A DNA stretch of 64,000 nt, taken from the NCBI GenBank assembly GCA_963769935.1, contig CAVYNY010000020.1, forward strand, positions 192,001-256,000, read 5' to 3'. The notes beneath the pieces were generated by a model. The model did no database searches, was not told the origin of the DNA, and saw only the letters and a list, made by a program, of their open reading frames with translations. Positions 27,177-59,290 of this stretch are shown in pieces. Within the stretch, counting starts at the first letter, position 1. Every line of letters starts with the position of its first letter. Source of the stretch: an uncultured delta proteobacterium (lineage in GTDB: Bacteria > Desulfobacterota > Desulfobacteria > Desulfobacterales > JAFDCJ01). The translations under genes were made by a program, and so were the position numbers.

Positions 27177-27260
27177 ATTAGCGCCCCCAAATGATTTCAA
27201 TATGAAACCAATATGAAACCAAATGGAGTTGTTGTCAAGCCCAAAACAGACATTTATGTT

Positions 27261-32189: not shown

Positions 32190-32618
32190 TCAGTCTTCAG
32201 GAGTTTGATGCAATTGACCGGCCTGATGGAGTTCAATTTTAATATATTTTGAGAATAGCTCGAAGTCTTTGTCTGTCGTGTATATTGAAAACCCGTTCCT
32301 TGCAGCCACAGCGCAAATTAGGAAATCAGTATTTGATACCTGTATTCCTTTTGATCGGCATCGATTGAAATACTTTGCAGCCGTAACATAGTCTTCGGTG
32401 AAAATTTGTAGATCGGGAAAGCTTTCAAGATGTTTCTGGAGCTTTTTAAACTGAGATTCACTGCGGATACCCGATAAAATCTCCTGACGTATGGGGCCAA
32501 TCATTTGGACACGGTGGTCTCTGATTATATGCCGAAGCTCTTGAACGGGAGCAAAGGTGCCCTGTTTGTCGCGCCTTAAAGCCAGAGACCATACGCTCGT
32601 GTCTACAATAACCTTCAT
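32190..32618 (-). CDS. vapC: VapC / PIN-domain toxin
   Basis: VIVDTSVWS, QEILSG, TDFLICA, TTDKDF. Confidence 0.92.
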   Translation of the reverse strand: MKVIVDTSVWSLALRRDKQGTFAPVQELRHIIRDHRVQMIGPIRQEILSGIRSESQFKKLQKHLESFPDLQIFTEDYVTAAKYFNRCRSKGIQVSNTDFLICAVAARNGFSIYTTDKDFELFSKYIKIELHQAGQLHQTPED

Positions 32619-32815
32619 GTGCGGCGTCTCTGTTTTTTATAGTCATATTCCGGGTCGTATTCCACTTTGCCGAACATTGAGAGAATTTTTTCCTGCTCTA
32701 AATGTTGTATATATTCTATTAGTGCCGTTGAGACCGCGTCCTTCTTAGTCTTGTGGCCGCCCAGCCTGACAGCTTTTAAGATAAGTTTGTCATCTATCTG
32801 TAAATTTGTCGCCAT
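32615..32815 (-). CDS. VapB-type antitoxin
   Basis: MATNLQIDDKLI...GGHKTKKDAV; RBS aaggagg; overlaps the toxin start. Confidence 0.88.
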   Translation of the reverse strand: MATNLQIDDKLILKAVRLGGHKTKKDAVSTALIEYIQHLEQEKILSMFGKVEYDPEYDYKKQRRRT

Positions 32816-33003
32816 AAAGGGCACCTCCTTAAAATCTATAAACGACACACAATATTACACATTTGTTTGTGTGAAATCAAGCCGTATATTGGGAGTTTCA
32901 ATAATTTAGCAGGATGAAAAAAGTTCAAGGTTGGTCTCTCGTAGAGTGCCGAGGGGACGGACGATTTTACTGTCCAGCGGAATAGGTACCAGAATTCCAT
33001 CAA

Positions 33004-33207: not shown

Positions 33208-34656
33208 CTATTTGAATCGATCGACCCGCTTTTGGATTTGTGCGGCCTGCTCCGCGGGGATATTTGCCGGCTGATGGTCCTGCAGGATTTTTTGCAGTTT
33301 CTTTTGGGCCCGCTCCAGCAGGCTCGTGCTGCCGGATGACTGCCATTTGTCGTGGCCCATGCGGCTGATCAACTTGGGCCGCCACTGGGTGGATTCGAGA
33401 TTCTGCAGGGTATGCAGATGGGCCAGAAAATTGCCGTCCGCCCCCACTTCTTTGATGACATCCACCGCCAGGGTTTTATCGTCGACCGGAATGCCCCGGT
33501 AAAGACGGCGCACCTGATCGATGATTTCGTCCAGAATCACAATCATTTCCAGGCTGCCGGTGAGGCCGAAATCCAGGTACCCCACATCATGATTCAAATT
33601 GGAGCCTGCCAACTGGGCGATGAAGGTTAGAAGGCCGGCTTCGAAGGTGGCCTGCCCGTCCGGGATCTGCGAATCGCTGGTGCCGGCGTAGCCCCAGTTG
33701 GGCAGGTTATAATAATGGCTCATCTCGATGATCGCCAGATAAGACAGAAGATATTCCGGCGCATTGTAGGAGCACTGGCCGGTGGCCATATCCAGCACCG
33801 CCGGCCCCATCCCCATAATAAAGGGGGCGCCCTTGGCTTTAAGCTGGTGGATCACCAGACCGGCAAAACATTCGGCCAGGCCCTGGGCCACATGCCCGGC
33901 AATGGTCATCGGAGCGGTGGAGCCGGCAATCGGGGCCGGCGAAAAGATAACCGGCATGGCTTTTTCGGCGCAAAACAGGAGTTTGTCCACACTCTCGACC
34001 GGAAACTTCAAAGGGCTTACAGGTTCCCCGTAATAAATGGCATACGGCTTGGAGCGCAGCCCGTCTTCCCCGCCGCGCAGGATACACCCGATTGCCCACA
34101 TGGCGCTCAGATCGTCGCGGTTGTCGGCCGTGCAGACAATCGGCTTGGTCGAATTGGCCGCCATGGCCTGGAAGCTGCGCAAATAGGCCTGCTTGGCCGG
34201 ATAGTCGGACGGATTGGCAAAAGACATGATAAAGTCAATGTTGGGCAGGGCGTCGGCCGCCTTGGCTGCCCGGATGACGTCTTCCAGCAGGCAGCGGTGG
34301 CGCTGCATGCTCTTTGAATCCAGGGAGTAAATAAGATCGGAACCGGTGCCGTAATAGGAACGGTGCCCGCCAAGGTCCATGGCCTGTTTGCCTTCGCGGT
34401 CGTAGATCAGGATGTTATTGGGTGCGCTTGCCAGGGCCTGCTGAACAAGTTTCCCGGGGATTTTCACCATGCGCTCTTCTGATACGGAACAGCCGGCATC
34501 TTTGAGAAGCGCCAAGGCTTCGTCGTGGAATATTTTCATGCCGATATCGCTCAGGATCTGAAAAACAGCCCGGTGAATTTTTTCCTTATCCTCTTGGGAG
34601 AGAAACGACAATGTCGGCCGCATGGATATTTCTTCGACAGGTATGGTAGGATTCAT
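33208..34656 (-). CDS. MttB-superfamily methyltransferase, non-pyrrolysine
   Basis: YYGTGS, EPVSPL, GSTAPMTIAG, AGTSDSQIPDGQ, NLNHDVGYLD. Confidence 0.92.
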   Translation of the reverse strand: MNPTIPVEEISMRPTLSFLSQEDKEKIHRAVFQILSDIGMKIFHDEALALLKDAGCSVSEERMVKIPGKLVQQALASAPNNILIYDREGKQAMDLGGHRSYYGTGSDLIYSLDSKSMQRHRCLLEDVIRAAKAADALPNIDFIMSFANPSDYPAKQAYLRSFQAMAANSTKPIVCTADNRDDLSAMWAIGCILRGGEDGLRSKPYAIYYGEPVSPLKFPVESVDKLLFCAEKAMPVIFSPAPIAGSTAPMTIAGHVAQGLAECFAGLVIHQLKAKGAPFIMGMGPAVLDMATGQCSYNAPEYLLSYLAIIEMSHYYNLPNWGYAGTSDSQIPDGQATFEAGLLTFIAQLAGSNLNHDVGYLDFGLTGSLEMIVILDEIIDQVRRLYRGIPVDDKTLAVDVIKEVGADGNFLAHLHTLQNLESTQWRPKLISRMGHDKWQSSGSTSLLERAQKKLQKILQDHQPANIPAEQAAQIQKRVDRFK

Positions 34657-34709
34657 TGTTATAGCCCCGGAATTTAGTTTGATGGATAAAATTTAGTTTG
34701 ATGGATAAA

Positions 34710-35031
34710 AATGAATGGATTCGATTTTAATTTCTTTAAGTAGACAGGATTTACAGGATGAACAGGATCTTTTCAAGGTTTCCGGATGAAACCGTGAAAA
34801 CAGCAACCGCCTTCCGGCGCAGTATTGGGCGCTACGTGACTAAGATCAAGGATACCCTATTTATTGATGAACGAAATGCTATTCAAATCTGGGACAACAC
34901 TGAAGCTTCTACATTTTCCGCGAAGCGGATTATCTATTTCCGGTTTCCTCCGGAAACCGGAAATTAAAAATATCCCAACAATCCTGCAAATCCTGTCTAT
35001 TTTTAAAAAATAAAACCAGAATCCATTCGTT
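34710..35031. repeat. Inverted-arm element (ACAGGATTT / AATCCTG arms) with outer gaatggattc inverted repeat
   Basis: aatgaatggattc...tagacaggatttacaggatgaacaggat ... aatcctgcaaatcctgtcta...gaatccattcgtt; preceded by a 19-bp tandem duplication at 34672-34709. Confidence 0.72.
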
Positions 35032-35060
35032 AATTTATAAAATTAATTTCACTGAATGTT

Positions 35061-36945
35061 TCATGCCGCTAACCCGGGATGATCCTGACTGAATTTGATT
35101 CCCAGTTCGGCCAGTTTGGCCGCCGTCGGCCGGCCCTGCGCGTCCCATCCCATGACGCTGTAAAATTTCTTTCTCATGGGTTCCATCCACTCCGACGGTT
35201 TGGACGGCGCCTGACCGGAATTGTACTCTTTGTCAAAAAACATATCCGGCAGACGATCATCGGCCGCGCCGACGCCGCAGCGCAGGTTAAAGAGCCTTTC
35301 GGTGTTGACGATTCTCTCCCCCGCGGCAAAAAGATCGGCCACTGCAACCGGCTCTCCGGTCAGAGCCGCCGCCAGTTCCGTCTCGGCCACCAGGTCATAG
35401 GCGCAGATGAGGGATAAGGCCGGGACTTTGCATATGCCGAGGCTGTCCATCACCGTGCCGACAATCATGGCCTTTCGAACCAGTTCGGCTTTGCCGTGGA
35501 TGGATTTGAGATCGGAGGCCTTGGGTGTTCCGAACTCCTCGCCGGGCTCGTCCGGCATCCATTTATGTTCCAGCGCGGAGTAGACGTCGTTAAAATCCGC
35601 TCCACGGCTGGCAACCGTATATCCCAGGGCCGTACCCATCATGTTGTCCGGATGATAGCCGGACAGCCCAAGCCCTTTGACATGCGCGGCATAGTATTCG
35701 GATCCTCGCCCGATGATCTGGGCGGCCCGGCGCACGCCTTTGCCAAGCACGGCGCCGAACCCTTGGCCTGAGGCCATCTGTCTGATCAACGCCTCCATTG
35801 AGTTCCCGTTGCCCCAGGCCAGGTCCAATCCGCCGGTATCTTCCAATGTCAGAATATGGCGGTCAAAGAGATCCATGACAAAGGAAATGACGTTGCCGGC
35901 TGAGATATTGTCGATCCCCAGCCGGGAGCAAAGGTTGTCCAGGTAGACCAGGGTGTCCAGATCGGTCAAGCCGCATTTGGCCCCCAGCGACAGCATGGGT
36001 TCGAACTCGGGCCGGAAGACTTTTTCACCCTTGAGCCGGCCGCTGGTAAATTTCAGTTCAGCCTTGCATTGAACGGGGCATCGAAAACAGCCGCGCGACC
36101 GGGTGACCTTGTCCGTCAGATTTTTCCCGTCAATTCGATCCGCAGCCTCAAAGGTATTGGTCCGAAAATTGCGGGTAGCAATAATGCCCAGGTCATCCGC
36201 CCATTTGACGTAGCCGGCTCCCCCGTGCGTTTTAAATGTTTTAAATTCGCGGCGAATTTTTTATCTGCCGGGCATAGCGGATGACGGCTTCATTATCCGT
36301 CACCGGGACCGGAATCGGTTTCGGGGGGTTTTGTCCTTTGATAACAACGGCCTTCAGGTTTTTAGACCCCATGACCGTACCCATGCCGGTGCGTCCGGCG
36401 GCATGATCGCCGTCCGACATGATGCAGCCGAACAGCACGCCGTTTTCGGCGCCCGGACCGATGGTCAAAATCCTTAATTTTTGGCTGCCCAGCATGGTTT
36501 TAAGCTGCTCGTCGGTTTGTCGGGTGTCCAGCCCCCAGAGCGATTCGGCGCTGCGGATTTCAATCGTATCGCCGTCGATCAACAAGTAAACCGGCTTCGG
36601 TGCCTTGCCGCGGATAATCAGGCTTTGAATGCCGCCGGCGCGCAGCTGGGCGCCGAAGGCGCCTCCGATATTCGAGCTTCCCAGGATGCCGGTCAAGGGG
36701 GAACGGGCATTGAGGTGCAGCCTGGAGGAGGAGGGCGCCGCGGTTCCGGTCAGCAGACCGCAGGAAAACATGAGAATGTTCTCGGGCCCGAGGGGATCGC
36801 AATCTTGCGGCAGATTCGCATAAAGATACTGGACATTGAAGCCCCGGCCGCCGAGATACTTCCAGGTCAGCTCGGCGGGGAAAGGCTTGAATTCCCAGGC
36901 TCCCGTACTCAGATCGATTTTAAGAATGCGCCCCAAAAATGCCAT
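35061..36945 (-). pseudogene. Aldehyde:ferredoxin oxidoreductase (tungsten AOR family), one frameshift at ~36249 (possibly a sequencing error)
   Basis: YLGGRG, SPLTG, IGPGAEN, GRTGMGTVMGSKNLKA; CFRCPVQC and EFE in the shifted frame; DSLGIC, DDRLP; removing 1 nt gives 627 aa. Confidence 0.85.
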
Positions 36946-37119
36946 GCTGCAGAGTGTCCTTTAAGCGCTTGCCGGGTGTGCCGCCGGCGAGCTTATAATT
37001 TATGGAGACATTATATTTTAGGGAAACTTGAAGCGAGTGTCAAGGATGATGGCGCGGATGTGAAGGTATCGTTAAAGTAAATTCTAAAGCAGTTGCAGCG
37101 GCAGGTTTTAAAAGATAAC

Positions 37120-37335
37120 AAAATTCCAAATTTCAAGCACCAAATTCCAAATAAATTTCAAATCCCAATATCCAATGACCGAAACATTCATCAGAGTTGT
37201 ATCGTATCCGCTTCTAAACCCAGGTCTGCCGTTGATCTTTCCATTAGATACAATCGTCAAATGATTATTTGTTTGGAATTTTGAATTTCGGTGATTGGTA
37301 TTTGTTTGGAATTTGGTTTTTGGAGCTTGGAATTT
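37120..37335. repeat. Inverted-arm element, family A, copy 3
   Basis: aaattccaaatttcaagcaccaaattccaaataaatttcaaatcccaatatccaatgacc ... ggtgattggtatttgtttggaatttggtttttggagcttggaattt. Confidence 0.8.
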
Positions 37336-37401
37336 GTCATAACCTCATACTGATTATTTGACTTCGAGCACTTTTATTAGGGACCTAACGCTTAATTCTA
37401 C

Positions 37402-38937
37402 CTACTTTAATTTTCCAACCTTCTTTTCCACTGCGGCCAGTATCTTGCCGCTGCACATCAGCTCCCGCATGGCGGTGATGTCGTGTGACAGGATGCGATC
37501 GCAGTCCAGATTAGGAATCACCTCGCGGATGACGCGGTAGGCTTCCATGGTGCCCTCACCGGGTTTCAGGTTGGTGAAAAGGTCCAGGGCCTGGGCGGCG
37601 CACAGAAGTTCGATGGCGACCACATCCCGGGTATTGTTTACCACCTCGCGGCACTGGCGGGCTGCGATAGTGCCCATGGAGACATGGTCTTCCTTGTTGG
37701 CCGAGGTGGGGATTGAATCCACGCTGGCCGGATGGCAGAGCACCTTGTTTTCAGACACCAGGGCCGCCGCCGTGTACTGGGCGATCATAAAACCGGAATT
37801 AAGCCCGCCGTCGCCGACCAGAAAGGCCGGCAGTCCGCTCAGCATGGGATTGACCAGCCGCTCGATTCGACGCTCGGAAATATTGGCCAGTTCGGCAACG
37901 GCCATGCTCAGAAAATCCATGGCCAGAGCCACCGGCTGCCCGTGAAAGTTGCCGCCCAGCAAAAAGTCCTGGGTTGCGGCATAAATCAGCGGATTGTTGG
38001 TGGATGAATTCATCTCGGTTTCGATAACCTTGCGGCAATAGTTGACGGCGTCCTTGGTGGCGCCGTGCACCTGGGGCGAACACCTGAGGGTGTAAGCATC
38101 CTGCACCCGGCCGCAGTCCTTGTGGGAGGTTATGATTTCGCTGTTGCGGACAATTCGTTCCATGTTGTCGGCGGCCGCGGCCTGGCCGGGATGCGGCCGG
38201 ATGGCATGGATCCTGGCATTGAATTCGGTGCGGCTGCCCATCAGTACCTCGAGACTCATGGCGGACGCTATATCGATCAGCTTGGAAAAATGGACGGCGT
38301 CATTGACCGCCAAAGCGCCGATCGCGGTCATCACCTGGGTGCCGTTGACCAGCGCCAGACCTTCTGCAGCCTCCAGTTGGATGGGCTCCAGACCGCACTT
38401 GCTCAGCACCTGCTGACCGGTCATTTTCTGCCCTTTGTAAAACGCTTCACCCAGTCCGACCAGAACCAGCGCCAAATGGGCCAGGGGCGCCAGGTCGCCG
38501 CTGGCTCCGACCGAGCCTTTCTGCGGGATCAACGGGCAAACACCCCAGTTGAGAAGCGCAATCAGGTGTTCGACGGTCTCAAGGCAGATGCCGGAATGAC
38601 CGCGGGCCAGATCCTGGATTCGCAGTGCCATGACGGCGCGTACGGTTTCCTCGTTCAGCGGTTCACCGACGCCGGCTGCATGGCTCATGAGAATATTTTG
38701 CTGCAGCCGGCGCGTGTCTTTTTTGGAAATCACCACATCACTTAACGCACCGAATCCGGTGGTAACGCCGTATATGGTTCTTTCTTCCTCAACCCATTTT
38801 TCGATCAAGCGGCGGGTATCCCGCAATCTTTGTTCCGAAGCTTCGGTTAATTTGACATGCGCGCCCTGCCTGGCGATTTTGACCAGTTTCTCCAGCGTCA
38901 TGCCGTCCATGTCGATCATAATTGTTTTTGCAGCCAA
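37402..38937 (-). CDS. hutH: Histidine ammonia-lyase
   Basis: YGVTTGFG, SH specificity pair (LMSHAAG), MIO motif GASGDLAPL, QDAYTLRC, GGNFHG, EDHVSM. Confidence 0.93.
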   Translation of the reverse strand: MAAKTIMIDMDGMTLEKLVKIARQGAHVKLTEASEQRLRDTRRLIEKWVEEERTIYGVTTGFGALSDVVISKKDTRRLQQNILMSHAAGVGEPLNEETVRAVMALRIQDLARGHSGICLETVEHLIALLNWGVCPLIPQKGSVGASGDLAPLAHLALVLVGLGEAFYKGQKMTGQQVLSKCGLEPIQLEAAEGLALVNGTQVMTAIGALAVNDAVHFSKLIDIASAMSLEVLMGSRTEFNARIHAIRPHPGQAAAADNMERIVRNSEIITSHKDCGRVQDAYTLRCSPQVHGATKDAVNYCRKVIETEMNSSTNNPLIYAATQDFLLGGNFHGQPVALAMDFLSMAVAELANISERRIERLVNPMLSGLPAFLVGDGGLNSGFMIAQYTAAALVSENKVLCHPASVDSIPTSANKEDHVSMGTIAARQCREVVNNTRDVVAIELLCAAQALDLFTNLKPGEGTMEAYRVIREVIPNLDCDRILSHDITAMRELMCSGKILAAVEKKVGKLK

Positions 38938-39005
38938 TGGTTGCTCCTTATATAGGTTTCAGGTTTCAGGCGTCAGCGTCGACCGCCGAAGTCTATCAGC
39001 TTATA

Positions 39006-40457
39006 TCAGGCCAATTCCTTCTCCCCGCGCTTTTTTATCTCCTCCAGGCTCGCCAGGGTCTTATCGCCAAGGACCGGCGGCCGGTGTGTTTCCAGGATTT
39101 GCTGAATCTTTTCCCGCACCCGGGTGGCCGTATCTTTGGCGCCGGCTTCCTGCCACCGAGTGTACTGCTGGCGCGTAAATATATCGGGACGCCAGAGTTC
39201 ATGCTGGAAATGCTGCAGGGTATGCTTTGTATCAAGAAAATTACCGCCCGGTCCGACGGATGCAATTATCTCCCGCGCCAGAGCTTGCCGGGATATCTCG
39301 AACCCGCGCAAAAACCGCTTGGTCATTCCGATAAGTTCGTTGCCGACGATCAGCTGTTCCACCGCACAAACCATCCCCATGTCCATGTAGCCGACGTCGT
39401 GAATCAAATTCAGACCCGCCAGCCCCTGCGCCATTATATGGAAGGCGGCTTCGGCGCCGGCCTGGGCATCCAGAACTTTGGCATCGGTAGAGCCGGCCAG
39501 ACCCCAGGTGGGCAGGCCGAAGTGCTGGGCGACCTCGGCCTGGGCCGCCAGGGCTAGGCTCATTTCGGGCGCGGCCGTGCACATCAGCCCGGTGCCCATG
39601 TCGAAAATGCCGAAATTACATCCCAGTCCCACGGGGCTGCCCGGACGGCGAAGTTGAACCAGCACCAGCCCCATCAATGATTCCGCCAATCCCTGGGCGA
39701 CTGCGCCGGCTATCGTCACCGGACCCGTGGCGCCGGGCTGGATCGCCGGGCCCATCATCTGCGGCAGGCCCAGATCGGCGGCGACAAACATTCGCGCCAC
39801 CACCTCGGCGGGAAAGACAAGCGGCGAGATCGATTCGGGATACAAGACCAGAAACGGTTTTTCGCGCAGTCGGTCAAGCCCGCCGCTGACGGCTGCGGCC
39901 ATTTCGTAAACCAGTTCCGTGCCGCGTGCCGAATAGGTCAGGAAAACGATCGGTTTGGCGGTGTTGCCGACAACCGCCGCAAACTCATGCAAGTCGGCGG
40001 CTTTGGCCGGCACATCCTGGCAGGAGCCCATGGGCATCACCCAGTCGATATGTTCCAGGCTGTCGGCTATTTTGGCAGCCCGCGCGATGTCGGCGACGGT
40101 GGTCGGATGCACCGCACCGGTCAGGGCGTCTTTGGTGTTGGGGCTGGCGGTGGAGGTGCCGTAGTAGCTTTTTCGGTTTTCAACCTCCAGGGCCCGCTGC
40201 CCTTCACGATTGTAGATGGTCCAGCCCCTGGGTGCGGTGTTAAGGCATTGCCGGACAATAAACTCCGGCACTCTGATACGATCTTCGGAAACGACGGCGC
40301 CGGCCTTCTTCAGCATGGTTCCGGCATCCGGATGCAGGACTTTGAATCCCACCTTCTCCATCACTTCGAATGCCGCCCGGATTAGTTGCTGAATCTGATC
40401 ATCGGTCAGCATCCTGAACAACGGACTTTGTTTTTTCGTCGAGTTGGTCTGAATCAT
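39006..40457 (-). CDS. MttB-superfamily methyltransferase, non-pyrrolysine
   Basis: YYGT, ESISPL, GATGPVTIAG, AGSTDAKVLDAQ, NLIHDVGYMD, VGPGGNFL. Confidence 0.92.
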   Translation of the reverse strand: MIQTNSTKKQSPLFRMLTDDQIQQLIRAAFEVMEKVGFKVLHPDAGTMLKKAGAVVSEDRIRVPEFIVRQCLNTAPRGWTIYNREGQRALEVENRKSYYGTSTASPNTKDALTGAVHPTTVADIARAAKIADSLEHIDWVMPMGSCQDVPAKAADLHEFAAVVGNTAKPIVFLTYSARGTELVYEMAAAVSGGLDRLREKPFLVLYPESISPLVFPAEVVARMFVAADLGLPQMMGPAIQPGATGPVTIAGAVAQGLAESLMGLVLVQLRRPGSPVGLGCNFGIFDMGTGLMCTAAPEMSLALAAQAEVAQHFGLPTWGLAGSTDAKVLDAQAGAEAAFHIMAQGLAGLNLIHDVGYMDMGMVCAVEQLIVGNELIGMTKRFLRGFEISRQALAREIIASVGPGGNFLDTKHTLQHFQHELWRPDIFTRQQYTRWQEAGAKDTATRVREKIQQILETHRPPVLGDKTLASLEEIKKRGEKELA

Positions 40458-40654
40458 AATCCGCACCTCCGGCTTGATAGGGTTGAGCAGGACTTAATTT
40501 TCGATCATTTTTGTATAGTTTATCGCTTGACCATTTTCAACATTTTCTTTATTGTTGATGGCAACTGCACGAGACCATATAGCAGATTCCCCGCAATCCG
40601 CTGTTCTAATGCATGTTTAATACAATCCGCATCAACCTGCGGAGATCCACGTGT

Positions 40655-40825
40655 GCCCGTTGGCCCGTCTGCCGGTCAGCCGGTTTTCATGTGGGCCGGT
40701 AAACCGAAACGGGCCGGCGAACCTGTAGGCTGACCGGGCAGCTGACTAATCGGCCGACGGGTCAACCGGATAACCGGTCAACGAGCAAACGGGCCAACGG
40801 GCCAACCGGCTAACGGAACAACCCG
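40655..40825. repeat. Inverted-arm element, family B (CGTTGGCC / GGCCAACG octamers), copy 1
   Basis: gcccgttggcccgtctgccggtcagccggtt ... aaccggtcaacgagcaaacgggccaacgggccaaccggctaacgg. Confidence 0.75.
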
Positions 40826-40897
40826 TCCCACTATTCACCGCATTGATTAGGGCTTTGCGACACCTAGAAAAAATACTTGATCAAAGGAGTTAAGTAC

Positions 40898-42202
40898 ATG
40901 GATAAAAATTATGATGCAATCATTGTCGGCGCCGGCATCATCGGTTGCTGTACGGCTTTTGAGTTGGCGAAAAGGGGCTACAAAACGCTTAACGTTGAAA
41001 AACTGGGGGCCTCGGGGCAGGGGTCGACCGGGGGGTCGTGTGCCATCATCCGGCTGCACTACTCGACGCCCGACGGTGTCGCCATGGCCCGTGAAGGCTA
41101 TTACTACTGGCTTGAATGGCCGCAACATCTGCAGGTCGAAGACAAGGCCGGCATGGCCCGCTACGTCAACACCGGCTGCCTGGTTATCAAAACAGCCCTG
41201 AACAAATATCTGAAAAATGTTATGGCCAGTCTGGACAATATGGGCGTCGCTTACGAAGAACTGGATCGGGCCGGCATCCGGGAAAAAATGCCGCTGCTGG
41301 ATCTGCAGACATACTTTCCACCCAAGCTTCTCAACGATCCGGATTTCGGCCGCCCCACCGGCGAAGCCATCGAGGGCGCAATTTTTGTCCCCGAGTCCGG
41401 CTACATCACCGACCCGCAGCTGTCGACCCACAATGCCCAGATGGCAGCCGAGGCCAAAGGCGGGGAGTTCCGGTTCAATGCCGAAGTTGTGGAAATTCTG
41501 AAAAAGGACGGTCGGGTGGCCGGCGTCCGATTGAAAGACGGATCACGGGTATACGCGCCCGTGGTTGTTAATATCGCCGGGCCGCATTCGTATCTCATCA
41601 ACCGCATGGCCGGGGTCGAGAAGGGCATGAAAATCAAGACCCGGGCCCTGCGGCAGGAAGTCTGCCATGTGCCCGCCCCCGAAGGTTTTGACTACGAGAA
41701 AGCCGGAATGATCATATCGGACGGCGATATCGGCTGCTACTCGCGCCCGGAAGTCGGCAATCACGTGCTGATCGGCAGCGAAGATCCGGAGTGTGACGAA
41801 CGCGAATTTGTCCATCCGGATGATTATGACAGCAGCTTCACGGACCAGTGGACCACCCAGGCCATGCGCGAAGCCCAGCGCATCAAAGGGCTGCCCATCC
41901 CCAACCAGGCCCAGGGCGTCGTCGACCTTTACGACGTCTCCGACGACTGGATTCCGATTTACGACAAATCCGATTTGCCGGGTTATTACATGGCCATCGG
42001 CACATCGGGAAATCAATACAAAAACGCCCCGGTAGCCGGCGTATTAATGGCCGAGTTGATTCAAAAGGTCGAAGCCGGCCACGATCACGACAACGATCCG
42101 GTCAGGTTCGTCATGCGGCATACCGGCCGGGAATGCAACATCGGTTTTTTCAGCCGGTTAAGAGAGATCAACCCCGATTCCAGCTTTTCGGTCATCGGAT
42201 AA
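40898..42202 (+). CDS. FAD-dependent oxidoreductase, DAO / sarcosine oxidase beta-like
   Basis: IVGAGIIG Rossmann motif, GST..S.AIIR, VVNIAG, DVSDDWIPI, GTSGNQYKNAP. Confidence 0.88.
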   Translation: MDKNYDAIIVGAGIIGCCTAFELAKRGYKTLNVEKLGASGQGSTGGSCAIIRLHYSTPDGVAMAREGYYYWLEWPQHLQVEDKAGMARYVNTGCLVIKTALNKYLKNVMASLDNMGVAYEELDRAGIREKMPLLDLQTYFPPKLLNDPDFGRPTGEAIEGAIFVPESGYITDPQLSTHNAQMAAEAKGGEFRFNAEVVEILKKDGRVAGVRLKDGSRVYAPVVVNIAGPHSYLINRMAGVEKGMKIKTRALRQEVCHVPAPEGFDYEKAGMIISDGDIGCYSRPEVGNHVLIGSEDPECDEREFVHPDDYDSSFTDQWTTQAMREAQRIKGLPIPNQAQGVVDLYDVSDDWIPIYDKSDLPGYYMAIGTSGNQYKNAPVAGVLMAELIQKVEAGHDHDNDPVRFVMRHTGRECNIGFFSRLREINPDSSFSVIG

Positions 42203-42243
42203 TCCCCCGGCTTCAAGATCCCCAGGGATTTCAAGGTAGAGAT

Positions 42244-43245
42244 ATGAATAAGGTCCTGCTGGAGGTCCGCGATCTGCGCGTATACTTCCATGTCAAGGAA
42301 GGCGTCGCCCGGGCGGTCGACGGAGTTTCCTTCAAGCTCCGGCGGGGTGAAACCCTGGGACTGGTCGGGGAAAGTGGCTGCGGTAAGACCGTGACCTCGC
42401 TTTCGATTTTGAAACTGCTGGATGTCCCGCCGGCTGAATATCGGGGGGGAGAGATCCTTTTCGAAGGACGGGATCTGCTTAAAGCCGGCGAAAAGGAAAT
42501 GCGCCGGGTGCGGGGCAAGACGATTTCCATGATCTTCCAGGAGCCCATGACCTCGCTGAACCCGGTCTTGTCCATCGGCTTTCAGATTGCAGAGGTGCTG
42601 ACCACCCACCATAAAATGCGGCCGGCATCCGCCCGTGACCGCGCCGTTGAGTTGTTGACCATGGTGGGCATTCCATCACCCGAGCGACGGGTGGATGAGT
42701 ATCCGCACCAGCTGTCCGGCGGAATGCGGCAGCGGATGATGATTGCCATGGCGCTGGCCTGCAATCCCCAGGTGCTGATTGCCGATGAGCCCACCACGGC
42801 GCTGGACGTTACCATCCAGGCCCAGATCCTGGAGTTGATGAACCGGCTGCAGGCCGACCTGGGAGCCAGCGTTCTGCTGATCACCCATGACCTCGGGGTC
42901 ATTGCCGAGACGGCCCGGCGGGTGTCCGTCATGTATGCCGGCCGGATTGTCGAGGAGGCCGATGTAAAGACAATATTTAAATCCCCGGTCCATCCCTACA
43001 CCCAGGGGCTGCTGCAGTCCATACCCAGAATCGACGAGGAGCAGCGGCCGCATCGGCTGAGCGAAATACCCGGGCGGGTGCCGAACCTGTGTTTTTTGCC
43101 GCGCGGCTGTGCTTTTTATGACCGCTGCCCGATTCACATAGCGCAGTGCGTCGCGGAACGGCCTGAACTGCTGCCGGTGGAGGAAGGGCATCTGGCTGCC
43201 TGCTGGAGAGCCGAGGAGACCCTGAAAGGATCAAGCCTTGGCTGA
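42244..43245 (+). CDS. ABC ATP-binding protein, OppD/DppD-like
   Basis: [29 protein letters not shown]. Confidence 0.93.
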
Positions 43246-44203
43246 AGCGCTTATCGAAGTTGACGGACTCGTCAAGCATTTTGCGATCAAACGGGGTATT
43301 TTCTCCCGGGTGTCCGGTTATGTCCATGCGGTGGACGGCATCAGCCTGCGGGTGATGAAGGGCCAGACGCTGGGACTGGTCGGGGAAAGCGGCTGCGGTA
43401 AAACAACGGCCGGCAAAACGATCCTTAAACTGCTGGAGCCGACCGCCGGCACCATTCGATACAACGGGGACGATATCACCCACTACAAACGGTCGCAAAT
43501 GAAGGGGCTGCGGCGGGAAATGCAGATTATTTTTCAGGATCCGTTCTCCTCGCTGAATCCGCGCCATACGGTCAGTGCGATCATTGCCGCGCCTTTGGAA
43601 ATTCACAAGCTGGTCGATCCGTCGCAGAAGGAAGACCGGATCGCCGATCTATTGCGCAAGGTCGGTCTGTCGGCCGCCGCCATGCGACGCTATCCCCACG
43701 AGTTTTCCGGCGGTCAGCGGCAGCGAATCGGCATTGCCCGGGCGTTGGCGGTGAACCCCCGGCTGATTGTGGGCGATGAACCGGTTTCGGCGTTGGATGT
43801 ATCCATTCAGGCTCAAATTTTGAACTTACTGGAAGACCTGCAGGATGAGCTGGGTCTGACTTACCTCATGATTGCCCATGATTTGAGCGTCATCCGTCAC
43901 ATCGCCGATGTCATCACCGTCATGTACCTGGGTAAAATCGTTGAAACCGCCGCGAACAGGGAGCTATACCGGCATCCGCTGCATCCCTACACCCAGGCCC
44001 TGCTCTCGGCCGTGCCGATACCCGACCCGGAGCACAAGCCGCAGCGGATGATTCTGAAGGGCGACGTACCGTCTCCGATTCGGCCGCCGGCGGGCTGCCG
44101 CTTTCATCCGCGCTGCCCGCAGCGGTTTGAGCCTTGCGACAAAATAGAGCCCGAGTTCAAGATCGTTGAAGACGGCCACGGCGTTGCGTGTCATTTATAC
44201 TAG
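43238..44203 (+). CDS. ABC ATP-binding protein, OppF/DppF-like
   Basis: [32 protein letters not shown]. Confidence 0.93.
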
Positions 44204-44260
44204 TGATAGAAGCGGGAGGCCGGCGGCGCAAAAATCAGGATCGGCCGCAGGAGGTTAGCG

Positions 44261-45214
44261 GTGCTACAATACATCATCAAACGGGTTCTACAGGCCATAC
44301 CGCTTCTGATCGGTGTATCGATCATCGGTTTTTCCATGATGCACCTTGCACCCGGGGGACCGCTGGCCGTTTACACCCTTAATCCGACCATTACCGCCCA
44401 GGACATCGAACGGATCAAACAGGTATTCGGCCTCGACCAGCCGCTTCACATTCAATACTTTAAGTGGGCGTACGGTATTTTTACCGGCAACTGGGGCTAT
44501 ACCTTTTTCGGCGGCCGGCCGGTTCTGAACGTGATCCTGGAGCGGTTTCCGGCAACCCTTTTACTGATGGGGTCGGGAATGTCCCTGGCCATCATCCTCG
44601 GCATGCTGATCGGTATTCTGGGTGCGGTCCGGCGCTACTCGATTTTCGACTACCTGGCGACCAGCGGGGCCATGGTGGCGCTTTCCTTTCCGACATTCTG
44701 GTTCGGGCTGATGACCATATTCTTATTTTCACTAAAGCTCGGCTGGCTGCCGTCCGGCGGCATGTACACCCTGGGCGGGGAAGAAGGCATCCTGGATATT
44801 TTAAAGCATTTAATCCTGCCCACGGTGGTCCTGGCTCTGGTGCTCGTGGCCCAATGGAGCCGCTATTCACGCTCCAGTTTCCTGGAAGTCATTCATCAGG
44901 ACTACATTCGAACCGCCAAATCCAAGGGGCTTTCCGGGGGCCGCATTCTGTTTCGCCATGCGTTCCCCAACGCCGTGGCACCTTTGATTGCGCTGGCCGG
45001 AATCCAGCTTCCCTGGCTTTTCTCGGGTGCCCTGGTGACCGAAACCATTTTTGGATGGCCGGGGATGGGGCGCCTGTTTGTCGATGCGCTGACAATGAAA
45101 GAATACCCCGTGCTGATGGGCATGGTCATGATTACGGCCATATTTGTAATTATCGGCAATCTTTTGGCCGACCTAATGAATGCGCTCATCGATCCGCGGA
45201 TAAGATTGCAATGA
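44261..45214 (+). CDS. ABC permease, OppB/DppB-like
   Basis: DYIRTAKSKG, ETIFGWPGMG, IDPRIR. Confidence 0.93.
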   Translation: MLQYIIKRVLQAIPLLIGVSIIGFSMMHLAPGGPLAVYTLNPTITAQDIERIKQVFGLDQPLHIQYFKWAYGIFTGNWGYTFFGGRPVLNVILERFPATLLLMGSGMSLAIILGMLIGILGAVRRYSIFDYLATSGAMVALSFPTFWFGLMTIFLFSLKLGWLPSGGMYTLGGEEGILDILKHLILPTVVLALVLVAQWSRYSRSSFLEVIHQDYIRTAKSKGLSGGRILFRHAFPNAVAPLIALAGIQLPWLFSGALVTETIFGWPGMGRLFVDALTMKEYPVLMGMVMITAIFVIIGNLLADLMNALIDPRIRLQ

Positions 45215-46161
45215 TGACTGATTCAAACCAGACCAAAATCGATGGGACCGGGGACGCCGAACCTGGCGACGGCCGGGAGCACGCTCCCGTCGCGGGGCTG
45301 ACCATCCACTATTATGAGAGCCAGAGCCGGCGGATCTGGCGGCGGTTTTTACAGCACCGGCTGGCCGTGGCGGGCGGCGGCGTGGTGATCATGCTGCTGC
45401 TTATGGCGCTGCTGGCCGGTTTTATCTCGCCGCACGACCCCCTGGCCCTGGACACGCAGCGACGGTTTATCCCCCCATTGAAGGAGTCGAATTATTTTCT
45501 GGGAACCGATGAAATGGGGCGGGATTTGCTGAGCCGGCTTTTCTACGGCGGCCGCATCAGCCTGGTGGTCGGCGTGGCCGCCATGTTTGCCACGATCGTG
45601 ACCGGTCTGACCATCGGACTGATATCCGGTTTTTACGGCGGCAAAGTGGACATGATCCTGATGCGCTTCACCGACACGATGCTCTGCTTTCCGCAGGTGT
45701 TTCTGCTGCTGGTGCTGGCGGCCTTTATTACCCCGACGGTGATTTCCATCGCTCTGATTATCGGACTGACATCCTGGATGGAGGTGGCCCGTATCATTCG
45801 CGCTCAGATCCAGTATGTCAAAGAGCAGGATTTCGTGCAGGCGGCGTTTGCACTGGGCGCCTCGGAAATGCGCATTATGTTCAAAGAGCTGCTGCCCAAT
45901 GCCCTCGCACCGGTCCTGGTATCCGCGACCCTCAATGTCGCCAATGCGGTGCTCATGGAGTCGTATATCAGCTTTTTGGGGTACGGCATTCAGCCGCCGC
46001 TGGCCAGCTGGGGCAATATGTTGACCAACGCCCAGTCTTACTTTGATTTGGCCCCCTGGCTGGCCATTTTGCCCGGGGCCATGATCACCTTGACGGTGAT
46101 GAGTTTTAATTTCCTGGGAGACGGTCTGCGCGACGCCCTGGATCCCAGGCTGAGAATGTAG
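45211..46161 (+). CDS. ABC permease, OppC/DppC-like
   Basis: LGTDEMGRD, FVQAAFALGA, SWGNML, GDGLRDALDPR. Confidence 0.93.
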   Translation: MMTDSNQTKIDGTGDAEPGDGREHAPVAGLTIHYYESQSRRIWRRFLQHRLAVAGGGVVIMLLLMALLAGFISPHDPLALDTQRRFIPPLKESNYFLGTDEMGRDLLSRLFYGGRISLVVGVAAMFATIVTGLTIGLISGFYGGKVDMILMRFTDTMLCFPQVFLLLVLAAFITPTVISIALIIGLTSWMEVARIIRAQIQYVKEQDFVQAAFALGASEMRIMFKELLPNALAPVLVSATLNVANAVLMESYISFLGYGIQPPLASWGNMLTNAQSYFDLAPWLAILPGAMITLTVMSFNFLGDGLRDALDPRLRM

Positions 46162-46279
46162 CCTGGGAGGTAAAGTCAAAGCCTGACCTTCCGGCCAGGA
46201 TTTTAAACCTGATGCGCTGAACTCGGCTGACGGCATTCATTGCGCCATACCAGCCACAACCTTGAAAAGGAGAATTGCT

Positions 46280-47917
46280 ATGGAACGAAAAGGAATGACC
46301 AGACGTGATTTTATCAAGACCACCGGGGCCTTGACGGCTTTCGCTGCGGCGGCCGGCATGGGCATCCCCCGGCGGGCCTGGGCCGGGAAAAACAACGTTA
46401 TCATCGGCATGACCCAGGAGCCGGTCAACTTCAATGCCCTGCTGTATGTCAATTCCGGCACCGAAGAAGTTCCGGAAGCCTGCATTTTCGATGCCCTGTG
46501 GGACGTGAACGACAAGGGCGAATTCATACCGAATCTGGCCGTCCGCGTGCCGACCCTGGAAAACGGCGGCATCTCCCCGGACGGACTGGTCTGGAAGATC
46601 GAGCTGAAAAAGGGCGTCAAGTGGCAGGACGGCGCCCCGTTTACGGCCAAAGATGTTGAGTTCACTTACCAGACCATCGTCAATCCCAAAGTGGCCATCC
46701 GCTCGCGGTCGGGATTCGACCTGATCTCCGAATTTAAAATCATCGACGACTACAATGCGGAGATCCATCTTGCCAAGCCGTTTGTGCCGTTTGCCTGGGC
46801 CTGGCAGAAAATGCACATTGTCCCCGAACACATTCTGGCCAAAGTCCCGGACATCAACACGGCGCCGTACAACACCAACCCAATCGGGACCGGGCCTTAC
46901 AGACTGGTCAAACGGGTCGCCGGCAGCCACATGGTGTACAACCGCAACATGGAATACCATCGCGGTGCCCCGGCCATTGAAACGGTAATTCACAAATTCG
47001 TGCCCGATCAGACCGTGCTCTACACCCAGTTTAAAACCGGTGAGATCGATGTGCTCGGCCTGCACGGCGTGCCGCCCGAAAGGTTTGAAGAATCCCGCCA
47101 CCTGCCGGGCCTTGACGCGCTCGAGACCCCCGCGCCCTGGGTCGAGTTTATCTATTTCAACTGCGGCAAACCCCAATTCGAGGAAAAAGTCGTGCGCCAG
47201 GCGCTTTACTATGCCGTGGACAAGGAAAAGTGGATCAAGGACATCTACTACGGTCTGCCGCCCCGCACGCTGTCCTATCTGCACCCGAATCACTGGGCTT
47301 ACAATTCCAATCTGAAAGACCCCGGCTTCGATCCGGGACGTGCGGCCGAGATGCTCGATGCCGCCGGCTGGAAGAAGGGCTCCGACGGCATCCGCGAGAA
47401 AAACGGGGTCAAGCTGAAGTTCTCCATGTCCACCACCGCCGGCTCCAAAGCCCGCGAACAGGCCGAGGCCATGGTCCAGGCCAACTGGAAGGAAATCGGC
47501 GTGGCCATGGAAATCAAAAACATGCCCGCCTCAGTGGTCTGGGGCGAGTACACCACCAAGAGCCAGTTCGACACCCTGATGGTCGGCTGGGAGCCCACTG
47601 TGGGCATGGATCCGGACTACACCGCCCGCTGCCATTCCAAGCAGATCCCCGCCAAGTACGGCACCGGTTCGAATTATGTGCAGTATGAAAATCCCGCGTT
47701 GGACAAACTGCTGGAAGAAGGCGTGCTCATATCCGACATGCAGAAGCGTAAAGCCGTCTACGACAAAATACAGGCCATCCTGGCCGATGACGTCCCCTTC
47801 GCGCCGATCTTCGCCTACACGTTCATGTATGGCAAAAAGAGCGATCTGCAGGGATATAAAATCAACCCCTATGTGACCGACATTACCTGGAACATCCAGG
47901 ACTGGTCGTGGTCATAA
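46280..47917 (+). CDS. ABC substrate-binding protein, family 5, Tat signal
   Basis: TRRDFIK, LKKGVKWQDG, GTGPY. Confidence 0.93.
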   Translation: MERKGMTRRDFIKTTGALTAFAAAAGMGIPRRAWAGKNNVIIGMTQEPVNFNALLYVNSGTEEVPEACIFDALWDVNDKGEFIPNLAVRVPTLENGGISPDGLVWKIELKKGVKWQDGAPFTAKDVEFTYQTIVNPKVAIRSRSGFDLISEFKIIDDYNAEIHLAKPFVPFAWAWQKMHIVPEHILAKVPDINTAPYNTNPIGTGPYRLVKRVAGSHMVYNRNMEYHRGAPAIETVIHKFVPDQTVLYTQFKTGEIDVLGLHGVPPERFEESRHLPGLDALETPAPWVEFIYFNCGKPQFEEKVVRQALYYAVDKEKWIKDIYYGLPPRTLSYLHPNHWAYNSNLKDPGFDPGRAAEMLDAAGWKKGSDGIREKNGVKLKFSMSTTAGSKAREQAEAMVQANWKEIGVAMEIKNMPASVVWGEYTTKSQFDTLMVGWEPTVGMDPDYTARCHSKQIPAKYGTGSNYVQYENPALDKLLEEGVLISDMQKRKAVYDKIQAILADDVPFAPIFAYTFMYGKKSDLQGYKINPYVTDITWNIQDWSWS

Positions 47918-48946: not shown

Positions 48947-51608
48947 TTAAGACTCACTTCGTCCGGCGCTGACCATCTGGGCCAGCGACCGGGCCATATT
49001 GTCCAGGAACGCTTCATCCGGAAGCGAAATCGTCATTTTCAAGGTGCCGTCGTCCGCTTTTTCCATGCAATCGCTCAATTTGGCTTTGAAGGCACCGGCC
49101 AGCTGCGTCATTTCTTCCGATTCCTCCCTGGCTGAAAACATTTCACCGATAAACGCAAAGGCCGCCCCCATCAGTTTTCCGCCGGCCGCGGCGATTTTTT
49201 CTTTTCTGGCCAGTGCTTCGGCCTCCTTCTCAACCTGTTGCCGCATGCTTTCATCTTCGGCGGCATCCGGTTTTTCTCCCAGCAGAACCTCCAGTCTTCG
49301 TTTGAGCTCTTCCATGCCGGTGGCCATGTCAACCTTTGTCAGCTCGCAATCCGGATCGAGCACGGCCTGGGCAAGTTCATGCTTGGCGGAAAGCGTTGCC
49401 AGCAGGTTTTCTTCCAGGGTGTTTTCGGTCACCAGCAGATAGACCTGCACCGGCCGTTTCTGACCCATGCGATGCGCCCGACCGATGCGCTGCTCCAGGA
49501 CGGCCGGATTCCATGGCAGATCGACATTAATGACCGTATTGGCGGCCTGCAGGTTCAATCCGGTGGAACCGGCATTGGTGGTAATAAACAACCTGCAATC
49601 GGGGTCATTCTGAAACCGGTGCATGAGCGCCTGGCGCTTTTTTTGAGGCACGGACCCGTCCAGTCTGACATAATTCAGCTGCTGCTTTTCCAGAATCGGT
49701 TCGATCAGATTCAGCATGGTGGTCCATTCGGAAAACAGGACAACTTTGCGATCATCCTCCGCCATGAGCTGCTCCAGCAGTTGGCTGAGTTCGGCCAATT
49801 TGCTGGAGTACCCCGGCGGCTGCTTGTCCACTAAGAAGGTGCTGTCGGCGCACATCCGGCACATCAGCAGCGCTTTTTGCAGCCGGAGCAGATCCATTTC
49901 CGTCAGATATCTTTTCTGGATAATGGTCTGAATAATCTGGCGGTGTCCTTTCTGCAAATCAAGCTGCTCTTCGGTCGGCGGAATTCTTAAGATTTGATTG
50001 GTGCGCGGCGGCAGGTCTTTAATCACCTGCTGGCGGGTGCGTCGCAGCATGATCGGTTTGAGCTGATCTCTTAATGTATCAAGATTTTTGTAGCCTAGCA
50101 GTTTGCCTTTTTCATCGACCACCCGGTGGCGGTTGAAAAACCGAAATGCCGGTCCCAGCCTGCGATCGTCGATGAATTCCACCACCGAAAAAAGCTCGTC
50201 AATGCGGTTTTCAAGGGGCGTTCCCGAAAGCACCAGGGCAAAGGGGGATTTTAACGCCTTGATGACCCGGCTGGTTTTGGCCTCCCAGTTTTTGATGCGC
50301 TGGCCTTCGTCCAGGATAATCAGGTCCCACCGGACACGCTCGATCGACAGAAAATCACGCAGCACCTGCTCGTAGTTGCAGACCGTAAAAAAGCTGTCGC
50401 TTTCATACTGCGCCGGTCGATCCTTGGCACTTCCCAGAATAAGCCGGCAGCTGCGGTTGCTGAACCGCTTGATCTCGATGCGCCACTGCGATTTCAGGGA
50501 AGCCGGACAGATCACCAGCACCTTGGTGATGGTCGCATGCCGGGACAGCAGTTCGGCCACCCCGATGCCCTGGATGGTTTTGCCCAGACCCATGTCGTCG
50601 GCCAGGACCGCCCGGCCGGCCCCGGCGGCAAAGGCCACCCCGTCCAGCTGGTAGGGCAGCAATTCGGCTTTGAGCAGGGTCCGCCGCAGGGGATGCGTTT
50701 TCGGGTTTTCACGAATCCCGGCCACACTTTCGCCCATGCGCTCCTGGAACAGCTTGTGGTTGATGTATTCTTCGGCATCCGGATAAACCGTTACCGGGGC
50801 ATCCAGGTTCTCAAGCCGCCGGATGCAGTGGATCAGGCTTCTTTTACATTTTTAATTGCTGTGTCTCTGAAGGGTTTGACCAGCTTTGAGATTTCCGGGA
50901 TCAAGATTGTCCGGAATCAGCATGCCGAGCTGCAGCTGCTCGGCCGTAGCGCAGGTAAACACAGAGGTCATTGATTTCGGCCGGCGTTTCTCTGACGGTC
51001 TTGTTGAATTTTTTCCGGACCTGTCCAAGGCGCAAATGATGTGCTTGCAGGTGCCGAGCGTATTTTTGCGGAAATCCGGACACGAACAGTATGACTCGCC
51101 CAATTCCCAGCCCCGCAGGGCGATGCGATAACTTTTGCCGGAAACCTGACTGGTAAGGATATATTCGGTCCACAAGGCGCCTGGATCGAGCGATTGCAGT
51201 CGCATTTTTTCGGTTTGCGCTCTTTGTCTCCGATCGGCAAGTGCTTCTTCGACCAGGGCTTCGTCGCTCAGGCTCTCCATGGGGATTCTTTCAGGCGGCG
51301 GCGCCGCAAGCCCCAGCGTCAGTTTTTCCTCTAAAATCAGAGATAGGGCCGCCCCCTGATGTTCACAGGCACCGGGACAGACGCTGCAGTGAATGTTCAA
51401 ACGCTGCGCTTTTTGGGGATCGAGGCGGATGGAGACCTCTGGCCTCTTCGAGGTTCAGCCTGAAATGCTCGTTGTTGAAAGTTACCTGCTCAAACACGTC
51501 AATCTCATATTTACCGCCTTCCAAAATCAATTGCTTTCCTTGTGGGCCCAGCAGCTTGCAGGCTTGCGCATAAGAAAGACGAGACAGCTTATCTTTCAAT
51601 GTTATCAT
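48947..51608 (-). pseudogene. SWIM zinc-finger plus SNF2 helicase, several frameshifts in 50840-51440 (possibly sequencing errors)
   Basis: CSCPDF..GTCKH SWIM motif; LADDMGLGKT, DEGQ, SGTPLEN, QRIGRAHRMGQ; N-terminal part split over several frames. Confidence 0.85.
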
Positions 51609-58365: not shown

Positions 58366-58380
58366 ATCAAGGAGAAAAAA

Positions 58381-59286: not shown

Positions 59287-59290
59287 GGCT

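Follow-up and report, generated by a model that had tools for sequence, protein, structure and literature searches.

The stretch of DNA analysed here, called the window, is 64 kb long (G000:C20:192001-256000) and comes from an uncultured delta proteobacterium of the sulfate-reducer type with a genome of 8.0 Mb on 41 contigs, whose closest named relatives are metagenome bins of the Desulfobacterales. It contains a block in which the histidine ammonia-lyase gene hutH stands among genes of the MttB methyltransferase superfamily. Open reading frame calling and family scans placed MttB_A, hutH, a gene of the aldehyde-ferredoxin-oxidoreductase family (hereafter AOR*) and MttB_B in this order of transcription on the minus strand, facing a DAO-family flavoprotein gene and then oppDFBC with a family-5 binding protein on the plus strand (Table 1). 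The original prediction, made from the sequence alone, had described hutH as lying away from hutU and hutI between two non-pyrrolysine MttB genes, opposite a divergent flavoprotein and a peptide-type importer; the coordinates were confirmed and all these genes were found at the positions it named. Our results revealed that the module around AOR* and MttB_B is real, conserved and undescribed, with new MttB clades and a new AOR subfamily. From its context and active-site residues, we give an even chance to the reading that the block turns histidines methylated on the imidazole ring back to histidine for the Hut pathway, which would be an undescribed oxygen-free route.

Table 1. Features of the window (positions in window numbering)
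Feature	Position	Strand	Remarks
Second Opp-type importer with 4Fe-4S protein	1834-9196	+	binding protein 1834-3480; 4Fe-4S protein 3572-4639
MttB_C	12097-13548	-	third MttB of the window; recurrent cluster companion
Xylose-isomerase-like TIM barrel	13642-14541	+	recurrent cluster companion
MttB_B	33208-34656	-	non-pyrrolysine MttB superfamily, 482 aa, Trp/His-Asp pocket type; core gene; PF06253 282.6 bits
AOR*	35061-36945	-	tungsten/molybdenum aldehyde-ferredoxin-oxidoreductase family; core gene; AFOR_N + AFOR_C
Promoter-like site, sigma-70 type, TTGACA-17-TAAAAT	37015-37043	-	upstream of AOR*-MttB_B; 11/12 consensus match
HutH, canonical histidine ammonia-lyase of the MIO (4-methylideneimidazole-5-one) type	37402-38937	-	TIGR01225 696.9 bits, cut-off 539.15
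MttB_A	39006-40457	-	second non-pyrrolysine MttB, Trp/His-Asp type; PF06253 328.1 bits
FAD (flavin adenine dinucleotide)-dependent amine oxidoreductase, DAO family	40898-42202	+	sarcosine/glycine-oxidase-like; accessory; PF01266
Opp/Dpp-type ABC (ATP-binding cassette) importer: oppD, oppF, oppB, oppC, binding protein	42244-47917	+	binding protein 46283-47917; accessory, rare
hutU, ftcD, hutI, fchA	56106-61870	+	rest of histidine pathway, tetrahydrofolate (THF)-dependent branch; TIGR01228, TIGR02024, TIGR01224 above cut-off

Both MttB_A and MttB_B exceeded the Pfam cut-off of PF06253 (25 bits) over their full length and were 37.6% identical to each other. Neither gene has an in-frame TAG, Thr326 of MttB_B occupies the pyrrolysine position, and their scores against the pyrrolysine trimethylamine methyltransferase model TIGR02369 (383.8 and 372.5 bits) stayed below its cut-off of 525. 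The genome has six MttB paralogues in total and four of them lie within 42 kb here, the fourth (MttB_D) just before the window start. We could not detect a corrinoid protein or methyl-THF transferase gene inside the block. Both of these types, and an activator type as well, are encoded elsewhere in the genome (C9:75.7-77.5 kb and C20:81.9-91.7 kb), as are a pterin-binding methyltransferase, a RamA-like activator, formyltetrahydrofolate synthetase and acetyl-CoA synthase, and a corrinoid gene was present in 9 of 80 related loci. Each of hutH, hutU, hutI and ftcD has a single close copy in the genome, while the FchA-like protein scored below its family cut-off. No close match of hutC was found in this genome (best match, 69 residues), and a short motif of the HutC operator type had no match in the window.

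Linkage was followed in 201 genomes of the order that were at least 85% complete, with the top 6-8 candidates per genome scored; fragmented bins depress every count in this sample. MttB_B matched in 34 genomes, hutH in 90, AOR* in 40, the MttB_A type in 33 and the flavoprotein in 22. AOR* is the gene tied most closely to MttB_B, lying within 3 kb of it in 22/34 orthologues, and AOR*-MttB_B is the conserved core of the block. Distances to hutH were taken from 43 of 91 hutH rows, namely every genome with hutH and a match to MttB_B, AOR* or an MtgB-type (betaine-type) MttB. hutH was found within 10 kb of MttB_B in 12/34 orthologues from 7 families, whereas none of the 38 MtgB-type MttBs used as control lay near it, even though 29 of the 38 were in genomes with hutH. 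Carriage of hutH followed the same line (26 of the 34 genomes with MttB_B against 64 of the 167 others). MttB_B or MttB_A was present in 36/40 AOR* genomes. Of the four exceptions, G155 carries genes of the MttB_A type next to AOR* in its locus. MttB_B occurred without AOR* in 6/34 genomes. Among the best 80 of 305 GTDB loci, AOR* was present in 46 and the MttB_A type in 22, and a hut gene or histidine ammonia-lyase (HAL) homologue was found in 32 by tblastn, or 33 with L136, which was added by blastp.

The hut link of MttB_B recurs in about ten gene orders. For example, writing A and B for the two MttB types, we observed hutH-AOR*-B, hutH-B, hutH-AOR*-A, ftcD-B, B-hutH-hutC-hutU-hutI-ftcD, hutC-hutH-B-Opp-hutU-ftcD (L129), B-hutH-A-hutC-hutU-hutI (L146), hutU-hutI-hutH-B (L048), B-hutC-hutU-hutI-ftcD (L148) and B-A-hutC-ftcD (L102, L144). 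Gene order weighs more here than P values, since related genomes are not independent. In the wider phylum only 4/301 genomes had an MttB_B orthologue, indicating that it is concentrated in this order, and plasmids gave matches of 30-33% only. Cultured carriers include Desulfacinum infernum DSM 9756 (L139) and, for AOR*, D. hydrothermale DSM 13146. Uniqueness of the mttB-hutH linkage to this genome, which the original prediction had named as its refutation, was thus not observed. Its central idea, B12-dependent demethylation of a histidine derivative that feeds Hut and THF, passes because the link recurs outside this genome; hercynine, one of its suggested substrates, is disfavoured by the residues described next.

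MtgB binds glycine betaine via Y97, F356, R312 and H348, and its R312L variant is inactive; according to passages of the same source, Arg312 anchors the substrate carboxylate and is retained in every characterised quaternary-amine member, and the aromatic pair Tyr97/Phe356 varies even among characterised members (PMC13080624). Residues were mapped by HMMER alignments to 9YCE. Both window MttBs have Trp at 312 (W321 of MttB_B), Thr/Ser at 97, Gly at 356 and His-Asp at 348-349, so that among the MtgB residues His348 was found and Arg312, Tyr97 and Phe356 were not. Trp occupied the R312 position in 80/81 sequences of clade B and 29/29 of clade A, His348 followed by Asp was present in all 110, and positions 209/211 carried Tyr and Glu/Asp. 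The MtgB-type paralogue of the same genome, a control on C13, retains Arg and Phe. A and B came out as supported clades in a tree built from 141 MttBs. The two proteins share PF06253, the lack of pyrrolysine and His348 with MtgB of the MtgB/MtgC/MtgA system of Desulfitobacterium hafniense (PDB 2QNE, 9YCE) and with MtpB, MtcB, MtyB and MthB of Eubacterium limosum, and this genome holds the corrinoid protein, methyl-THF transferase and activator types of such systems. However, they differ from these in the three replaced residues, in their own well-supported clades, in their linkage to hut genes and AOR*, and in corrinoid genes that mostly lie elsewhere. An acidic, aromatic pocket without a carboxylate anchor would suit a protonated N-methylimidazole more than an alpha-amino-acid betaine; Trp for Arg312 in both MttBs argues against hercynine and for an N-methyl of the imidazole ring.

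The same residues bear on a route through N-alpha-betaines, in which an MttB would take the first methyl of hercynine or ergothioneine and the flavoprotein the other two before HutH acts, with AOR* removing the 2-thiol or oxidising released formaldehyde. HutH requires a free amine, so N-alpha methyls would need to leave first; moreover, AOR*-MttB_A-flavoprotein-importer operons exist in G110 and G155, and the MttB_A-flavoprotein pairs (8/27) mirror the betaine-dimethylglycine-sarcosine logic. However, the arginine needed in MtgB and, in the passages of PMC13080624, kept in MtcB, MtpB, MthB and MtyB is Trp in 109/110 of our sequences, a separate Arg-type MttB in L084, L098, L131 and L208 could do that job, and the flavoprotein was near hutH in 1/27 matches. 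We consider this route quite unlikely. A further hint comes from operons in which MttB_B orthologues accompany HAL homologues without Ala-Ser-Gly, that is, without MIO (L098:6757-11422 and L136:2205-6474, both aligned; L119 has the layout of L098, and L098 and L119 also carry an Arg-type MttB). This MIO-less type of lyase releases the N-alpha-trimethylamine itself, and a lyase for N-pi-methyl-histidine-betaine has been described, with ovothiols named as candidate natural substrates, in parts of a preprint (bioRxiv 10.64898/2026.04.22.720169). With the trimethylamine taken off by the lyase, a ring methyl would be the likelier target of MttB_B in those operons.

AOR* has both AFOR_N and AFOR_C with four 4Fe-4S cysteines and thereby belongs to the AOR/WOR family, where WOR stands for tungsten oxidoreductase; the residues that define an AOR in the strict sense were not all found. 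The shared second shell of AORs comprises Thr243, Glu313, Tyr427 and His448, and nearly all aldehyde-oxidising AORs retain T243 and H448, as passages of PMC12096430 have it. In 59/59 AOR* sequences compared with Pyrococcus furiosus AOR (PDB 1AOR), T243 was replaced by G/S, Y312 by F and H448 by F/Y, whereas Glu311, Glu313, Tyr427 and the cysteines were retained. Of 14 other AORs examined, 14 had Thr/Ser at 243 and 13 had His at 448. A change of C447 to Asp was dropped as a signature of AOR*, since Asp was also found in 8/14 of these. By these residues AOR* is a distinct, rewired subfamily, and the loss of two of the four aldehyde-oxidising residues makes chemistry other than aldehyde oxidation likely. 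Non-aldehyde precedents within the AOR/WOR family are ASOR/WOR5, with its carbon-sulfur chemistry (PMC12096430, in part), and BamB. Only 5 of 92 WOR clades have a defined role in the passages of PMC13328260; those passages and three supplementary files held no mention of a methyltransferase or histidine context, and the three files gave no WOR clade number matching AOR*. Four PBP_like_2 proteins were found in the genome, none of which was assigned to tungstate uptake.

The AOR* gene is split in the assembly by one extra base at 36249/36250. This base was missing from the contigs of 4/4 public runs, one of which matched the window almost exactly, so the frameshift is an assembly error and a pseudogene was ruled out; AOR* orthologues are unbroken, with 618-646 aa. 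A -35-like hexamer occurred at most 150 bases upstream of 32/49 AOR* starts (shuffles: mean 3.3, maximum 10). Together with the sigma-70-type site in the window, these recurrent hexamers make it probable that AOR* and MttB_B are transcribed as a separate unit. Short dispersed repeats, each with about 20-80 copies in the genome and different or missing in close relatives, fill the spacers between hutH, AOR* and MttB_B (window 34657-35060 and 36946-37401; also 40467-40897). RNA-library contigs of close relatives covered all 30 bins, although such contigs cannot show transcription, strand or level.

HutH has Ala-Ser-Gly and all of the catalytic Tyr, His, Asn, Gln, Tyr, Arg, Phe and Glu positions. 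With its MIO motif intact it was rejected as an ergothionase or histidine-betaine lyase, which are marked by loss of this motif; L098 and L136 are the only loci where it was absent. A paralogue specialised for methylhistidine was likewise set aside as a reading of HutH. The genes agree with the Hut pathway and its THF-dependent FtcD branch, with hutH, hutU, hutI and ftcD above the NCBIfam cut-offs, and differ from it in that the window adds methyltransferases and an oxidoreductase at the front end. Degradation of N-tau-methylhistidine involves the same candidate substrate class and Hut-like enzymes; the pathway of Beliaeva, Atac and Seebeck (2022) reportedly uses dedicated Hut paralogues and keeps the methyl as N-methylformamide, with no B12 step. 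The ergothioneine catabolism of Blautia producta and Clostridium symbiosum, through ergothionase and a thiourocanate desulfhydrase that we take to be a molybdoenzyme of the xanthine-oxidoreductase family, is an analogy in working only. There, an MIO-less lyase frees trimethylamine, whereas the lyase of the window has MIO and its redox enzyme is of the AOR family. In gut bacteria a redox enzyme removes the sulfur of the imidazole ring and the product enters urocanate metabolism, as parts of the preprint report (bioRxiv 10.64898/2026.04.22.720169). A HAL from a thermophile was tried on 1-/3-methylhistidine and mercaptohistidine, and passages of the source point to a narrow range of substrates, the reported kinetics being confined to histidine and to the ester and amide of histidine (PMC11432326).

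Demethylation might also follow the lyase. HutH and HutU would then accept methylhistidine, the MttBs would act on methylurocanate or N-methyl-formiminoglutamate for THF loading by FtcD, and AOR* would oxidise an imidazole aldehyde or formaldehyde. Such an order of steps would fit the loci where MttB_B stands by ftcD or hutC-ftcD without hutH (L102, L144, L216) or with hutU-hutI-ftcD (L148), the MIO-less lyases paired with MttB_B, which would yield methylurocanate, and the E311, E313 and Y427 that AOR* retains. However, the scores of HutH and HutU are those of ordinary equivalogs, with no second close copy of either in the genome, the module is found as well with a transaminase branch whose starting point is the free amino acid, and AOR* is without the T243 and H448 retained by nearly all AORs that oxidise aldehydes (PMC12096430, passages). 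We regard this alternative as very unlikely.

We return to removal of a ring methyl before HutH. It is probable that the substrate is a histidine or imidazole derivative, and the chances seem evenly poised that the ring N-methyl is removed ahead of the lyase. In the proposed mechanism, an Opp importer would bring in the substrate or a peptide containing it. In a redox step AOR* would then strip a substituent from the ring, the 5-thiol of ovothiol being the likeliest; this is the weakest step and a doubtful one. MttB_B would move the ring N-methyl to a corrinoid protein encoded elsewhere, MttB_A would serve the other ring nitrogen or a related compound, and the methyl would pass from the corrinoid to THF and the Wood-Ljungdahl pathway. 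HutH, HutU, HutI and FtcD would finally yield glutamate and formimino-THF by the established chemistry of their families. The flavoprotein would be an add-on that takes off N-alpha-methyl groups oxidatively where they are present. AOR* was usually found with an MttB and MttB_B often without AOR*, which suggests that with AOR* the pathway can also take in a methylated histidine that bears one further group on the ring. Among natural compounds of this kind, ovothiol A (N-pi-methyl-5-thiohistidine) is the most common. By analogy, AOR* may be an ovothiol desulfurase, though we would hold this only tentatively. A complete anaerobic ovothiol route, with the imidazole C-S bond cleaved by AOR*, the N-pi methyl removed by an MttB, the N-alpha methyls of ovothiol B/C by the flavoprotein and the rest by Hut, is unlikely as a whole; if true, it would add a new reaction to the AOR/WOR family, and the MttB would be the first to act on the nitrogen of an aromatic ring. 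The original prediction was therefore right in outline; its substrates and importer were too broad, and it gave no role to AOR*, whose rewired active site is the most unusual part.

Several points weigh against demethylation of ring-methylated histidines. The Fisher values for linkage overstate it, the genomes being kin. Away from hutH lay 22/34 MttB_B orthologues, and 8/34 genomes had no hutH match at threshold. Among loci of at least 20 kb, 16/30 were without a hut gene, and 22/80 loci had neither AOR* nor a hut gene. One group of MttB_B genes was next to ornithine aminotransferase and carbamate kinase genes (L132, L134, L141, L142), another next to ribosomal and zinc-uptake genes, and the single-contig genome G102 has MttB_B, AOR*, MttB_A and hutH far apart. 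MttB_D, which also has the Trp-type pocket, sits with a Cys/Met lyase, indicating that this pocket is not specific for histidine. Some HALs are cited as accepting N-tau-methylhistidine directly (PMC11432326, in part), so demethylation need not precede the lyase. The AlphaFold model of MttB_B (7-sequence alignment) was unusable, with a predicted local distance difference test (pLDDT) score of 35.9, and the pocket was read from a sequence alignment; all functional steps draw on context and residue mapping.

Much of this would also suit a general island for scavenging methylated amino acids, where the substrates of the MttBs are non-histidine compounds such as methyl-lysine, methyl-arginine or S-methylmethionine, and the hut genes are near since amino-acid catabolic genes cluster at shared importers and regulators. 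The orthologues away from hutH fit such an island, as do the four of six MttBs inside 42 kb, the pairing of MttB_D with the Cys/Met lyase and a flavoprotein paralogue, and the MtgB-type MttBs, racemase-like and PrpD-like genes in the same islands; an acidic, aromatic pocket without Arg would also suit a cation distant from the carboxylate. However, operons with hutC include MttB_B in several gene orders that are unrelated, MtgB-type paralogues from these genomes were near hutH in 0/38 cases, and the contexts without hut genes still hold histidine enzymes. This explanation is unlikely in our judgement. Where hut genes were not nearby, MttB_B was accompanied by a HisC-type transaminase, indolepyruvate oxidoreductase-type subunits and an acyl-CoA ligase (L089, L105, L109), possibly an oxidative imidazole-pyruvate branch replacing Hut.

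The flavoprotein travels with MttB_A or other MttBs and not with hut: it was within 5 kb of an MttB_A-type gene in 8/27 matches and within 10 kb of hutH in 1/27, which is this genome. G022, from outside the 201-genome sample, shares the window layout. The scores of the flavoprotein were far below the sarcosine oxidase cut-offs (86.2 vs 479.65 bits for TIGR01377, 65.4 vs 529.45 bits for TIGR01373) and its PDB matches were weak (best E 3e-11); it looks like a general follow-up enzyme for N-methyl amines. The original prediction had also drawn the facing importer into the pathway. This is not supported, as an orthologue of its binding protein, which has a twin-arginine-like start, was found in 3/201 genomes and 0/80 MttB_B loci, and the 20 kb read in G013 hold the flavoprotein and importer as a unit but neither an mttB nor a hut gene. 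The importer type usually next to AOR*-MttB_B in relatives is that of window 1834-9196, whose binding protein has an orthologue in 37/201 genomes. Binding-protein types c9/c14 occurred in 21/80 MttB_B loci, and c9 matches the gene at window 1834-3480 at 70%.

Most MttB paralogues and most tungsten-oxidoreductase clades are without a known substrate, and the locus offers a short candidate list for both, along with sequence signatures (Trp/His-Asp in MttBs; Gly/Phe/Phe at T243/Y312/H448 in AOR*). The biomass of animals and algae commonly contains methylhistidines, which derive from muscle protein and anserine, as well as thiohistidines, ovothiol among them. With MttB_B in 34/201 genomes of the order, the module could be a real sediment sink for methylated or thiolated histidines. 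In literature coverage that left most subscription journals outside, no account of an MttB-hut link, of an MttB for methylhistidine or hercynine (the original prediction likewise knew of none), of ovothiol catabolism or of an anaerobic B12-dependent fate of methylhistidines or thiohistidines was found. Such MttB genes are usually named trimethylamine or betaine methyltransferases in databases, and caution is needed against counting them as such.

A second type of hutH cluster was observed in L052, L053, L054, L060, L061, L062 and L029, with a HutH of 63% identity and often HutU. It holds a 4Fe-4S protein, a molybdopterin enzyme of the DMSO (dimethyl sulfoxide)-reductase family and 1-3 Trp-type MttBs, as well as an MtmB homologue with unbroken frame, a corrinoid protein, a polar amino-acid importer and arginase-/amidohydrolase-family genes. 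The cluster may serve a parallel route for a different modified histidine; a DMSO-reductase-family enzyme in the place of AOR* would fit a shared metallopterin step, without naming the reaction. MttB_D itself (G000:C20:190704-192134, L206) is followed by a Cys/Met lyase dependent on pyridoxal phosphate at window 207-1451, also seen in L230 and L231, and in two relatives (G020, G012) a flavoprotein paralogue comes after the pair. These genes are candidates for a route that handles S-methylmethionine or some other methylated amino acid with sulfur. The only other HutH paralogue of the genome is a second aromatic amino-acid lyase (G000:C12:63386-65089) with 33% identity to HutH, Ala-Ser-Gly present and Phe-Met at the specificity position, presumably a phenylalanine-type lyase.

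In the genus, a reductive-dehalogenase-like iron-sulfur protein (TIGR02486 168 bits, just above cut-off) lies between hutU and hutH/AOR* (L111:917-2395, L033:14695-16152); its match in G000 is on C38. The TIM barrel type of window 13642-14541 occurred in 8/80 loci, with only generic names from Atlas, and the 4Fe-4S protein of window 3572-4639 recurs with the module. Between MttB genes of G013 stands a protein of some 1500 aa (L041:6277-10827) that has a SIS domain and in part resembles GlmS; one of similar size was found in G103 (L186).

The original prediction placed the rest of the hut genes after an accessory insert of 8 kb. hutU-ftcD-hutI-fchA do begin after 8.2 kb, but the insert is not peculiar to this genome: in G020 and G008 the Snf2 helicase gene also adjoins hutH on the hutU side, and G015 has it upstream of hutH. 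The variable part across relatives is the MttB_A-flavoprotein-Opp block. The Snf2 gene of the window (48947-51400) is broken into pieces of 596 and 182 aa, compared with 883-887 aa for the gene of G020 and G015; a further frameshift of the assembly may be the cause. At window 14559-22205 the methyltransferase island is interrupted by two radical SAM proteins, DUF2064, DUF547 and three glycosyltransferases, and PIN-domain genes of the toxin-antitoxin type were found at window 26536-27275 and 32190-32820.

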